A stretch of DNA of 55,529 nt from a virus (lineage: Duplodnaviria; Caudoviricetes). Where the stretch lies: IMG/VR virus record IMGVR_UViG_3300025030_000131, positions 1-55,529 of that record; one strand, 5' to 3'. Under the pieces are notes generated by a model, which did not search any database, was not told the DNA's origin, and saw only the letters and a program-made list of their open reading frames with translations. The stretch's first letter is position 1. Each line of letters starts with the position of its first letter. A program made the position numbers and the translations under genes. Shown here in pieces: positions 12,791 through 47,619 of the stretch.

Positions 12791-13449
12791 TGGCAACGCA
12801 AAATAAAATAAGGGATTTGCTAAACACGCTTGTTTCCCTGCCTAATGCCCCTGAGATCAGCGCGGATGTTGTACGGGAATATCATGCCGTTTTGGGGCAC
12901 TGGCCGGATGAACTGCTGGATATGGCCGTTCTGCATTACAAAAGTTCTGAGGTCTTTTTTCCCACCCCCGGCACTCTGAACAATAAGATACTCGATCTGC
13001 AATTCATGGCGATGGGCATCCCCACTGCGGCGGAAGCCTGGAGTCAGGTCTTGGGCGCGGTTAGGCAAGTCCCGACTGTGCTTTGTGAAACTGGCTCACA
13101 ATTACGAACGGCAGCCGAGGGCAGGATAGGCGGCGAATACATGAGCGCAATTGCGGATTATTCCATCCACTTCCGAAACTGCGAAATATGCACAGATGGC
13201 GGATGGAAGGAAATCTACGACCACCCGGTGGTTGCTGAAACGGTGCGACTGCTTGGGGGACGGGATATGCTGCTAACCGACAACCTGGCCGCAGATCGTA
13301 AGCAGTTCATTGACGCCTACCGCGAACGGGTTCAGATCGAGGGTCGCAAGTTTATTATGCCCCCGAAGATCAGGGATTTTATCGCAGACCAGCGCTTACT
13401 TGAGGTCGGCGATCAGGTAAAACAATTGGCGAAAGGAATGTCCAAATGA
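12790..13449 (+). CDS. Putative replicative helicase loader/inhibitor-like protein
   Basis: Coupled to the initiator; FFPTPG and PTAAEAWSQV motifs. Confidence 0.55.
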   Translation: MATQNKIRDLLNTLVSLPNAPEISADVVREYHAVLGHWPDELLDMAVLHYKSSEVFFPTPGTLNNKILDLQFMAMGIPTAAEAWSQVLGAVRQVPTVLCETGSQLRTAAEGRIGGEYMSAIADYSIHFRNCEICTDGGWKEIYDHPVVAETVRLLGGRDMLLTDNLAADRKQFIDAYRERVQIEGRKFIMPPKIRDFIADQRLLEVGDQVKQLAKGMSK

Positions 13450-13706
13450 GCGAACCCGTACCTGTATTGATTGCCCGTAAACACCTGCTTGAAAAGCAGG
13501 AAAGCGATAACCCTGACAAGGATTATTCGGCTGATTGGCTTGAACTGGCCGGCCTGTTTGATGAGGTTGAGAGTCGGGTTAATGCCCACTATTGCAGGAT
13601 CAAGGCTGGCGTAATCCAGAAGGCGAAACCCAAGAGGGAATCCCCCGTCAGGGATCAGGGAGAATTTGACTGGCAGAGTCGGGCAGATATTGGGGATGCT
13701 GAATGA
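13446..13706 (+). CDS. Hypothetical protein
   Basis: ATGA overlap with the upstream gene. Confidence 0.6.
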   Translation: MSEPVPVLIARKHLLEKQESDNPDKDYSADWLELAGLFDEVESRVNAHYCRIKAGVIQKAKPKRESPVRDQGEFDWQSRADIGDAE

Positions 13707-13873
13707 GTACAATGATATTCCGACCTGAGGTTAGAGATGGATTGTGCCGTGCGGCGATCATGCTGGCACGCGAGAGAAGTAATACTATCTACACGATTAC
13801 GACGACCCAGTTGGTAAATAATCTAATCCACGTTAGCAATACGGCTGACGAATAAAAAAATAGGAGATACACA

Positions 13874-14074
13874 ATGACCACAGTAAACAACACCAACGGC
13901 AAGGCAATTGATTTCGAAGCGGCATTCAATTTGATGGATGACGAAATCTGCGAAACTCTTGCAAACGATGGCAATGAGCGAACCGAGCAGGAATTTTTCT
14001 CGGCTTACGAGAAAGCCCACGAAGCAAAATACGGCGAAGAGTGGGAGCTCAGCAAAGCAAATCCTGTCTGGTAA
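13874..14074 (+). CDS. Small acidic hypothetical protein
   Basis: RBS AGGAGA; 66 aa. Confidence 0.7.
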   Translation: MTTVNNTNGKAIDFEAAFNLMDDEICETLANDGNERTEQEFFSAYEKAHEAKYGEEWELSKANPVW

Positions 14075-14076
14075 AT

Positions 14077-14382
14077 CATCGTCTGCTTACTGGTGAAAGT
14101 CCAGTTCTGGTAAGGGTCAGGCCGCCAGATAGCAGGCAACCGATGCAGTCGGGCGACTGATTGTGTCGAAGCGTTGTAACTCCCAGAGAAAGGGAAGCAA
14201 AACAATAGCCCGTAACATAAAGTGAAACTTGCAGCACCGACATGTTAGCCCCGAAAGGGGAAAAAGAGAGAGCCGAGCCTGTCACGCATGGCGAAGGCAA
14301 TAGAAGCGGTCAAGAACCTGTAAATCAGCCGTGAAGAACTCTCCGGTGTAGAGAGTATGGGATGTTGCGACAGCAGACGATG
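14077..14382 (+). ncRNA. Structured RNA resembling group II intron domain I only
   Basis: 11-bp closing stem CATCGTCTGCT/AGCAGACGATG; CTGGTGAAAGTCCAG; G-U-rich stem with GCGA loop; CCCC-GAAA-GGGG; GCCGAGCC..GGCGAAGGC; CTCTCCGGTGTAGAGAG; no domain V/VI seen. Confidence 0.6.
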
Positions 14383-14433
14383 GACGGCATATAACCGTTC
14401 TAACAGAAGGTATAAACCGAAAGGAGTAAAGGG

Positions 14434-15762
14434 ATGAAACAAATAACATCGTTGTCAACCGAGCGAGTTGCGAGGTTCCGGGAGTTTGTAGATAAGTGGA
14501 CACACCTCGGATTGTCCACCAAGCCGGCTAACCACCCAGGGGCTGAGGACGCTCTGCGAAGGGCGTATCAAGTGGCCGGCCTGACACCTCCAAAATTTAT
14601 TGTGTGGATGAAAAGCCCGCGCGACGCAGTCTTGGCATGGGCTTTGATCTTGTCCTGGATAGTTGACGACCAAGTGAGCGACCAAGTGAGCGCCCAAGTG
14701 ATCGACCAAGTGCGCGCCCAAGTGATCGACCAAGTGCGCGACCAAGTGAGCGACCAAGTGAGCGACCAAGTGCGCGCCCAAGTGAGCGCCCAAGTGAGCG
14801 CCCAAGTGCGCGACCAAGTGCGCGCCCAAGTGCGCGCCCAAGTGATCGACCAAGTGCGCGACCAAGTGAGCGACCAAGTGAGCGACCAAGTGCGCGCCCA
14901 AGTGAGCGACCAAGTGCGCGCCCAAGTGCGCGACCAAGTGATCGACCAAGTGATCGACCAAGTGATCGACCAAGTGATCGACCAAGTGATCGACCAAGTG
15001 AGCGACCAAGTGTTCGCCCAAGTGAGCGACCAAGTGATCGACCAAGTGATCGACCAAGTGATCGACCAAGTGATCGACCAAGTGCGCGCCCAAGTGAGCG
15101 ACTATATCCAACAACGCTGGTGGTGGACCGGCTGGGGCAATCAGGAATGGTGGTTGTCCTGGATCGATTACTTCGGCTCCGCCGTTGGAATATCGGCAGA
15201 AAAAATCCATCCATTACTTGATCTCGCAGAACACGGCCATTGGTATTGGCCGATGCAGGGTATCGCCGTGATGTGTGAAAGACCTTTGGCTATTCGGCGC
15301 GACGGACGCGGAAGATTGCATTGCGACGATGGACCGGCAGTGGAGTACGAAGGCTGGACGATCTATGCCGTGGATGGAATGGGGATCCCTGATTGGATCG
15401 TGGAGTGTAAGGACCAGATCACACCTGAACGCATCAACGCCGAAAAAAACGCGGAAATTCGCAGGATCATGATGCGCTTCTATGGTTGGGATCGCTGGCT
15501 GGAAAACGTCAAGGCGAAACTTATTGACCGGGATCCAGACCCCACCATTGGGGAGTTGTGGTCATTCAAAGACGTGGATGGTGTGACCGTGAAAATACTT
15601 AAGGTTCGTAATGGCACAAGGGAAGTAGACGGATACCGCAGCTTTTCTTTGCGCGTGGACTCGGATTGCGAGACTGCACTCAAGGCAAACAGGTGGACAT
15701 ATCCTTCCTGTCGTCAAATGTCGGAGCAAGATTACCGTATTCTAAATTCTGCAAGATCATAA
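14434..15762 (+). CDS. DUF6745-like phage protein with a central tetrapeptide repeat
   Basis: N-terminal AYQVAGLTPP.FIVW.SP; C-terminal GRLHCDDGPA..Y.GW..YAVDG and NAEIRRIM. Confidence 0.75.
   Translation: MKQITSLSTERVARFREFVDKWTHLGLSTKPANHPGAEDALRRAYQVAGLTPPKFIVWMKSPRDAVLAWALILSWIVDDQVSDQVSAQVIDQVRAQVIDQVRDQVSDQVSDQVRAQVSAQVSAQVRDQVRAQVRAQVIDQVRDQVSDQVSDQVRAQVSDQVRAQVRDQVIDQVIDQVIDQVIDQVIDQVSDQVFAQVSDQVIDQVIDQVIDQVIDQVRAQVSDYIQQRWWWTGWGNQEWWLSWIDYFGSAVGISAEKIHPLLDLAEHGHWYWPMQGIAVMCERPLAIRRDGRGRLHCDDGPAVEYEGWTIYAVDGMGIPDWIVECKDQITPERINAEKNAEIRRIMMRFYGWDRWLENVKAKLIDRDPDPTIGELWSFKDVDGVTVKILKVRNGTREVDGYRSFSLRVDSDCETALKANRWTYPSCRQMSEQDYRILNSARS
14668..15099 (+). repeat. 36 x 12-bp coding tandem repeat G(A/C)CCAAGTG(AGC/ATC/CGC/TTC)
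   Basis: Directly visible; encodes (D/A)QV(S/I/R/F). Confidence 0.95.
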
Positions 15763-15776
15763 AAAGGAGATCAGCA

Positions 15777-16121
15777 ATGAACAAGACTCAGAAAATCAAG
15801 TCAAATACTTTCGGCGCAATCCAGGGCGACGTTCCGATCCTGCGGGTAGGTGCTATTCCTGCGGATGCCAGGCCAACCAAGAACCGCCGCGTGGCAGAAG
15901 GTGAAACCACCGGGCACAACCACGAAGTGAGAGGCGAAGTCCAGATGTATGAAAACCTGGCTGGCTTTTACTTCGAGGTTGCCACAAGCAAGAAGGTGGA
16001 GATCGTGCATACCCCGGGTGGTGAACATGCCACGATTGAAATGACTCCGGGCCTGTACTTCGTGCCCCGTGAAGCACAGGTGGAATATGACGGCAAGAAG
16101 GAACGGCGCGTATTGGATTAG
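15777..16121 (+). CDS. Small His-motif protein typically paired with DUF6745 genes
   Basis: QGDV, AEGETTGHNH, H....EH..I...PG.Y, R.VLD; RBS AAAAGGAGA. Confidence 0.7.
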   Translation: MNKTQKIKSNTFGAIQGDVPILRVGAIPADARPTKNRRVAEGETTGHNHEVRGEVQMYENLAGFYFEVATSKKVEIVHTPGGEHATIEMTPGLYFVPREAQVEYDGKKERRVLD

Positions 16122-47283: not shown

Positions 47284-47619
47284 TCAATCCTTATCATCGT
47301 CTGGTGGTATCTGAGTTCCTGCCTGAGTTCCTTGATTAGAGTCTTGTTTGTTTTCATTCCCTGCCTCCGCTACGCTCTTGATCGCCCAAATAAAATCAGC
47401 AGCCTCGTTGTCGTTCATGGCCCGGTAGTGGTGGCCGTCGATGATTACAACGTCATCGGTCTGCCTCTCGACAGCCGCCGCCTGGTTGGCTCTTTTTACA
47501 ACATCTTTCAGGAATTGAGCCATGCCGTCCCCGATCATCAGCAGGTCAATCCCGCGCTTGATCCCGGTATCCATGATCTTGAATGTATGGTTGGTGGAAT
47601 CATATTTGCATGTCAGCAT
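47284..47619 (-). CDS. Hypothetical protein
   Basis: RBS GAGGAG. Confidence 0.6.
   Translation of the reverse strand: MLTCKYDSTNHTFKIMDTGIKRGIDLLMIGDGMAQFLKDVVKRANQAAAVERQTDDVVIIDGHHYRAMNDNEAADFIWAIKSVAEAGNENKQDSNQGTQAGTQIPPDDDKD

Follow-up and report, generated by a model that had tools for sequence, protein, structure and literature searches.

Between an anti-CRISPR-like gene and a gene of the DUF6745 family, a phage record of the Caudoviricetes carries a non-coding gap that is filled almost entirely by a strongly folded RNA resembling domain I of a bacterial group II intron, and the question raised by this locus is whether such an RNA has been domesticated by the phage or is merely what remains of a mobile element. 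The record analysed, hereafter the window, is the whole linear viral record of 55,529 bases, estimated to be 93% complete. A preliminary description, having recognised domain I from the order of its motifs, took the neat closure of the element and its retained wobble pairs as signs of a domesticated non-coding RNA or leader rather than of decay. The comparison with complete relatives presented here leads to a different reading: the element is very probably a dead, recently truncated fragment of a canonical mobile group II intron, now a structured spacer.

The gap, its neighbours and the folded element

According to the ORF list, the two genes that flank the gap both lie on the + strand (Table 1), and the DUF6745 repeat gene does begin just downstream of the element, as originally described. 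The upstream AcrIC5-like ORF retains its native 3' end (...CCTGTCTGGTAA), which abuts the intron fragment, and its C-terminus, EWELSKA(N/D)P.(W/Y)*, is common to nine homologues from other viral contigs. Because these homologues (61-70% identity) sit in otherwise unrelated viral contigs, the AcrIC5-like gene, whose Pfam family comprises anti-CRISPRs directed against type I-C systems, seems to travel as a small cassette; a terminator-like hairpin, and no intron sequence, comes after several of these homologues. On the other side of the gap, the ribosome-binding site of the DUF6745 gene overlaps the last intron-derived bases.

Several further observations concern the surroundings of the gap. The tandem array inside the DUF6745 ORF is built from the unit CGACCAAGTGAG, present in 36 tandem copies with 89% matches and yielding a four-residue repeat of the type DQVS/AQVR, and such 12-nt units were also encountered on a contig from an unrelated groundwater run, X5. 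Farther upstream of the gap lie a replication-initiator-like gene and a SNF2 helicase with intein-like segments; the HINT/intein-type matches in this helicase (approximately residues 203-289 and 534-560) fall between its SNF2 and Helicase_C parts, which suggests that an intein of roughly 350 aa may be inserted there. Synteny searches of IMG/VR returned no relatives of either the 219-aa upstream protein or the C-terminal part of the DUF6745 protein. The best tblastn matches of the terminase were Salinibacter phages, and naming a host on this basis was rejected, 41% identity being too distant.

Table 1. Positions of the element, its parts and its neighbours in the window
Feature	Position	Strand	Basis
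SNF2-family helicase, 996 aa	8994-11984	+	
AcrIC5-like anti-CRISPR ORF, 66 aa, upstream gene	13874-14074	+	Pfam PF22147 AcrIC5, E 2.2e-20, 73 bits
5' junction, short microhomology: acr stop codon meets intron position ~8-16	14068-14076	+	Alignments; BLAST matches begin at 14068-14073
Group II intron domain I, helix I(ii) inward; closing helix CATCGTCTGCT (14077-14087) / AGCAGACGATG (14372-14382)	14077-14382	+	Inverted repeat, identity to relatives, consensus structure
RF02003 (group-II-D1D4-4) match, 5' half of domain I	14087-14220	+	78 bits, gathering score 49
GGTGAAAGTCC	14092-14102		
12-bp G-U-rich stem with GCGA cap	~14141-14168		
CCCC-GAAA-GGGG	14251-14262		
GAGCCGAGCC...GGCGAAGGC	14270-14298		
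CACGC hairpin loop, probable exon-binding site 1	14283-14287	+	Read from sequence
CTCTCCGGTGTAGAGAG	14339-14355		
Domain II leftover (inner hairpin GACGG...CCGTT), II/III joiner, first bases of domain III	14383-14424	+	blastn, 82.5% over 14385-14424 vs L023/L027
Shine-Dalgarno-like AAGGAG (14421-14426) and DUF6745 ATG (14434)	14421-14436	+	Sequence, ORF list, end of homology
DUF6745 protein, 442 aa, downstream gene	14434-15762	+	Pfam PF20530, E 3.8e-40
12-nt tandem array inside the DUF6745 ORF	14667-15102		Tandem Repeats Finder, period 12, 36.3 copies

All the motifs from which domain I had been recognised are present in the element, the G-U-rich stem measuring 12 bp against the 11 bp claimed, and the inverted repeat of 11 nt that bounds them is likewise real, its arms being 100% complementary and separated by 284 nt. 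The predicted fold of 14070-14390 has an energy of -110.4 kcal/mol (z = -4.6 against 100 shuffles). The search against the Rfam group-II-D1D4 models that had been proposed as a check gave a match to RF02003 above its gathering score (E 2e-15) over the full model, positions 1-138 of 138, and together with an identity of 90-94% to domain I of complete introns this bears out the assignment to a group II intron. The other Rfam matches in 13000-16000 at low threshold, to snoRNA, miRNA and CRISPR-DR models, were dismissed as chance-level (E 1-8). A promoter and terminator scan of 13300-15000 found no site inside the element, and its counts did not exceed those of shuffles, so the element is probably co-transcribed with the + strand genes.

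Complete relatives of the element and the parts it has lost

An exact 26-mer from 14077-14102, used as a query, retrieved 11 loci, two from genome bins (one Anaerolineaceae bin and one labelled Chloroflexus sp.) and nine from metagenomes. Six of them (L021, L022, L023, L024, L026 and L027, representing three sequence types) match the window from 14068 or 14073 to 14384 at 90.1-94.2%, the identity over domain I amounting to 94.2% for L023/L027, 93.0% for L026 and 90% for L021/L022/L024. Every one of these six loci carries RF02003 at 65-85 bits and, on the same strand, RF00029 (45 bits, cut-off 40) at 0.54 kb downstream in the ORF-less form or 1.7 kb in the longer form, and is thus a complete intron. 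The L027 intron codes for a protein of 433 aa in which RVT_1 and GIIM domains are recognised and which reaches 440 bits, against a cut-off of 300, with the equivalog model for group II intron RT/maturases, TIGR04416. The window copy has the same 92-pair fold, closing helix I(ii) and CACGC loop as both the RT/maturase-encoding introns L027/L023 (~2 kb) and the ORF-less introns L021/L022/L024/L026 (~0.85 kb), whereas GUGUG, helix I(i), complete domains II-VI, the upstream sequence ...AAC(A)AAGCGTG and, in L027/L023, the RT/maturase are features of those introns that it does not share. Homologues of the whole of domain I were therefore complete introns at six of six loci, none with boundaries confined to domain I, which is the very outcome that the preliminary description had named as telling against its proposal of domestication.

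The remaining five loci (L018, L019, L020, L025 and L028) match only the first 39-101 bases. The incomplete copies of L018, L019 and L020 (the same as L025), along with second copies in L021/L022/L024, keep the true 5' end and GCGTG, and each stops elsewhere, about 70, 95 or 100 bases in. In L021 (2903-3960), as in L022 and L024, a 3'-truncated copy comprising the first ~100 bases of the intron stands directly behind a complete ORF-less copy of ~0.85 kb, and it looks as if a new copy had homed into a still-intact target beside an older fragment. The sequence past the second partial copy in L021 is common to L018, the Anaerolineaceae genome bin; both L018 and L019 carry Chloroflexota labels. 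The 5' flanks of the intron in L018, L019, L020, L021, L024 and L027 share ...GC-N-YYAAC-AAAG-CGTG, of which the last five bases are complementary to the CACGC loop. The YYAAC part resembles the inverse core of integron attC sites, and this attC-like motif is a lead on the usual target of the intron family, not on the window fragment.

More distant relatives were sought among viruses. Whilst blastn in distant mode with 14060-14440 gave no match among INPHARED phages, a scan of IMG/VR with a degenerate domain I pattern yielded seven loci, five with RF02003 at 94-106 bits and two without any Rfam match; a second IMG/VR pattern returned L006 only. Three of the five RF02003-positive loci have RF00029 0.5-1.7 kb downstream and the other two end 263 and 354 nt past the match, too soon to be informative; this Rfam family thus normally marks complete introns. 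These loci belong to more distant members of the family, with an extra hairpin before GGTGAAAGTCC that is absent from the family of the window. Overall, the intron family comprises RT/maturase-encoding and ORF-less members, is common in groundwater, soil and peat communities, and is found as fragments in Chloroflexota genome bins.

The other parts of an intron are missing from the window, in agreement with the absence of a GUGCG 5' end, of domains V/VI and of an RT that had been noted from the start. RF00029, the domain V/VI model, had no match across the 55.5-kb record (six candidates scored; the record being ~93% complete), nor any within 13000-16000 even at E up to 10; GUGYG is absent at the 5' end of the window copy; neither an RVT_1 (PF00078) domain nor a relative of the L027 RT/maturase was detected in the phage record; and when three full introns were compared with the entire window by blastn, this locus was the only match at E < 0.04. 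A weaker match at 47343-47368 (27 nt, 85%, E 0.15) to the domain VI insertion of the relatives was considered as a domain V/VI remnant and rejected, given that no domain V hairpin lies beside it and that it falls within coding sequence.

The points of truncation can be read from the alignments. The 5' boundary of the relatives runs ...AAC(A)AAGCGTG / GTGTGTCCTGA(A/T)AA(G/A)TCATCGTCTGC..., the 5' splice site being read as GTGTGTCCTG... with helix I(i) following, and the window at the same junction reads ...AATCCTGTCTGGTAA ATCATCGTCTGC... The window bases up to TGGTAA are the own end of the anti-CRISPR gene, which in the nine homologues is ...SKA(N/D)P.(W/Y)*, and the intron homology hence starts in a microhomology at the stop codon (CTGGTAAAT in the window versus CTGATAAAT/CTGAAAAGT in the intron). 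At least the first seven intron bases, that is, GUGUG and the start of helix I(i), are missing. In the predicted fold of the complete relative L021, UCCUG (after GUGUG) pairs with CAGGA (after domain I) to form helix I(i), and CAUCGUCUGCU pairs with AGCAGACGAUG to form helix I(ii). The 5' strand of helix I(i) has gone with the truncation; its 3' strand, CAGGA, is lost within a gap of 24 nt near 14377-14385, which also takes the 5' strand of the domain II stem and is apparent against all six full-length copies. Towards the DUF6745 gene, 14385-14424 still hold a small hairpin that varies in sequence between relatives with its pairing kept, and the homology stops at ~14424, inside the AAGGAG motif and ~10 bases before the start codon.

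Taken as an intron, the phage copy thus retains helix I(ii) with all of domain I that it encloses, ~40 nt of domain II and the first bases of domain III. Gone are the 5' splice site, helix I(i) on both strands, the greater part of domains II-IV, domains V and VI and the intron-encoded protein. Domain V is the catalytic domain of group II introns and domain VI bears the branch point, and by established group II intron biochemistry the lost parts are needed for splicing and mobility. An RNA so reduced, in a record that has no RT either, should be unable to splice, reverse-splice or move. Judged by the usual anatomy of group II introns, the CACGC loop is probably exon-binding site 1. It is complementary to GCGTG, the pentamer that immediately precedes the intron in the relatives and that stands there in L018, L019, L020, L025, L027, L021, L023 and L024. 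The window's own upstream sequence (...CCTGTCTGG) is not complementary to this presumed exon-binding loop and so lacks the mark of a 5' exon. Among the properties of a functional intron, then, homology to domain I (clan CL00102) was found, and a 5' splice site with helix I(i), domains V/VI, an RT/maturase and exon complementarity were not. The properties of a fragmented remnant were all found, namely high identity to full-length copies and ends private to the locus, at intron position ~8-16 and inside domain II/III.

The consensus structure derived from the seven-sequence alignment (the window and the six complete copies) has 92 pairs, and its closing stem is simply helix I(ii) of the intron family, with 11 of 11 pairs kept in all seven copies and a change to G-U in some copies at two of the positions. 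Both the neat closure and the wobble pairs accordingly belong to native intron helices, identical or nearly so in the full-length copies, and not a sign of domestication. Three of the 92 pairs are non-standard in the window copy (two private and one common to L026), which leaves 89 intact; five of the six complete copies have no broken pair and L026 has one, the pair also broken in the window. Six substitutions are private to the window copy. These counts are too small to prove relaxed constraint, and there is no sign of selection for the truncated form; a divergence of ~6% represents too little time for visible decay, so that the intact stems say nothing about selection.

Environmental sequencing runs

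A k-mer search of the Logan index with a query of 567 bases found the whole query in four groundwater runs, which may be source samples. The query words were represented at 24-36% in ten DNA runs, which come from studies of soil, peat, permafrost, lakes and other groundwater, and at 14-22% in six RNA runs; runs with small word shares (X16-X20) form no part of the evidence. The contigs of four runs (X5, X7, X9 and X15) were aligned to 13600-14700. In all four, the foreign contigs cover only ~14068 to 14384-14424 (90-99% identity for the most part, below 90% in 12 of 35 records); none extends onto the anti-CRISPR ORF, and on the DUF6745 side they stop at ~14424, X5 alone adding short repeat pieces at 14667-14700. 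The lack of contig cover over the acr ORF and 14451-14635 is to be read as "not bridged by any foreign contig" and not as proof of absence.

The contigs of X7, X9 and X15 continue beyond the match into a GUGYG-type 5' end, domain II-like sequence or both. Upstream of the match they read ...GCGTGGTGTGTC / ...GTGGGTGCGTC, containing the GUGYG 5' splice site, and downstream those of X9 and X15 continue with AACAGGAGAG.TCTCATCTGG..., unlike the window. The 24 nt absent from the window also appear in foreign contigs, as an insertion behind 14377. The sole contig of X5 on the element, 216 nt and wholly inside domain I, carries no information on ends. In X15, the only RNA run of the four and a freshwater metatranscriptome, a contig of 482 nt matches 14068-14384 with 12 differences over 317 bases and a word depth of 168; it has a GUGCG-type 5' end and represents a relative, not the window's copy, and the intron family is probably transcribed at a high level in nature. 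Across the 11 loci found with the 26-mer, the nine loci with a related anti-CRISPR gene and the contigs of the four runs, no other copy has the same ends as that of the window. The nine anti-CRISPR loci gave no Rfam match at all, only the ORF itself being alignable. What would characterise a stand-alone family of domain-I-like non-coding RNAs, conserved boundaries without domain V and covariation, was thus not found, and the phage element is a relic, not a new kind of RNA.

Inert remnant, co-opted RNA, split intron or artefact

Some traits of the locus are tidier than an inert remnant need be. The gap is filled exactly, from two bases after the stop codon to the ribosome-binding site of the next gene; the 24-nt loss takes precisely the strand that would have paired with the one removed by the 5' truncation, which is neater than random deletion requires; and 89 of 92 intact pairs would also be expected under selection, although an identity of 94% to working copies explains them equally well. 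The boundaries, which coincide with a stop codon and the Shine-Dalgarno-like AAGGAG (14421-14426), the strong fold and its intact pairs would suit a co-opted remnant acting in cis, either as a structured 3' end protecting the anti-CRISPR transcript or as a leader supplying or regulating the DUF6745 ribosome-binding site, and Toro et al., in the passages of PMC4181065 drawn on here, hypothesise that intergenic 5' intron fragments may become cis-regulatory elements. Such a role is nonetheless improbable: the arrangement occurs once and is seen at none of the nine related anti-CRISPR loci, a copy still 94% identical to functional ones would have intact pairing in any case, and the element holds no terminator- or promoter-like site, with IMG/VR offering no relative of the DUF6745 gene or the 219-aa upstream gene for comparison. 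It would be a shade less probable still that the phage keeps a catalytically dead domain I, its recognition loop intact, beside an anti-CRISPR gene for an RNA function, as an exapted fragment in a counter-defence locus. Were this true, the exapted domain I might lend stability or insulation to the anti-defence transcript while driving translation of the DUF6745 gene or, more boldly, act as a decoy binding the targets of host introns or their RT/maturase.

That domain I is an independently folding scaffold, here with its probable exon-binding loop CACGC intact, and that the record is only ~93% complete, a point that also keeps the absence of other intron parts from being absolute, speak for a permuted intron, or for a split, trans-splicing one of which the phage carries one half; the other domains would then be encoded by the host or by the ~7% of the phage genome that the record does not cover. 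We regard this as very improbable, as no exon is left to join once the 5' splice site and helix I(i) are gone, the upstream ORF is complete without splicing, the break lies inside domain II/III with an extra loss of 24 nt, and the 55.5 kb contain no domain V/VI, RT or other intron piece, the short match at 47343-47368 having no adjoining domain V hairpin. Equally hard to credit is an assembly artefact in which an intron repeat of the community joined unrelated contigs into an arrangement found in no genome. Repeats are classic sites of chimeric joins, and samples of this kind widely contain this intron family, in multiple copies; yet both junctions fall at non-repeated, non-boundary positions sharing at most ~8 nt, too short for bridging by k-mer assembly, the gene orientation is uniform over the join, and 100% of the sampled 31-mers across 13874-14440, both junctions included, occur in four separately assembled runs from three samples, which may be the source.

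The reading of the element as a truncated, inert intron fragment can be put as a most likely sequence of events. A copy of the intron family would have lain in, or recombined into, the accessory-gene region of the phage. Short microhomologies would then have served as sites of deletion or illegitimate recombination that reduced this copy to its present extent. The remnant would most probably be transcribed passively with the + strand early genes, as a spacer between the anti-CRISPR-like and DUF6745 genes whose last bases happen to overlap the ribosome-binding site of the latter.

The closest known counterpart is FRE652, a fragmented bacterial group II intron described in the consulted parts of PMC4181065 as a 652-nt RmInt1-like remnant of Sinorhizobium. 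Both are intergenic 5' ribozyme fragments, about 89-94% identical to full-length mobile relatives, in which the 3' part with domains V/VI and the RT has been lost together with the first intron base(s), and in which the exon-binding loop can still be recognised; 5' fragments with lost 3' ends are the pattern described there for RmInt1-type introns. The window fragment is shorter, with domain I and ~40 nt against domains I-III and part of IV in FRE652, has lost at least 7 nt at its 5' end against 1 nt, and has the additional internal loss of 24 nt. It also resides in a phage at one known locus, whereas FRE652 is conserved across strains. Most bacterial group II intron copies are truncated or inactivated, as stated in the excerpt of PMC4424553 used here; truncation is a known and common fate of these introns, and in this respect the element is ordinary.

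Amongst phages, the group II introns reported by Merk, Jones and Eddy (NAR 2025, PMC12350094) match models of the same Rfam clan, CL00102, and likewise lie on viral contigs. In the portions of that paper cited here, 4 of 20 phage records in the curated set have a D1-D4 match without D5/D6, and group II intron matches occur in about 0.06-0.07% of phage records. The authors treat matches to D1-D4 alone as putative introns; the window differs in being called a non-functional fragment, because its 5' splice site and domains are missing.

The closest genomic relatives of the intron hint that the host of the phage may be a Chloroflexota bacterium. For phage biology, the locus documents a group II intron fragment in a setting where such introns are rare, and the gap between the AcrIC5-like gene and the repeat-bearing DUF6745 gene represents a probable recombination scar in an accessory-gene region. 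More generally, a structured, Rfam-positive "orphan" RNA of a phage need not represent a new RNA class; it can be what a mobile intron has recently left behind, and the deciding test for such orphan RNAs is the search for near-identical relatives and the comparison of their ends.
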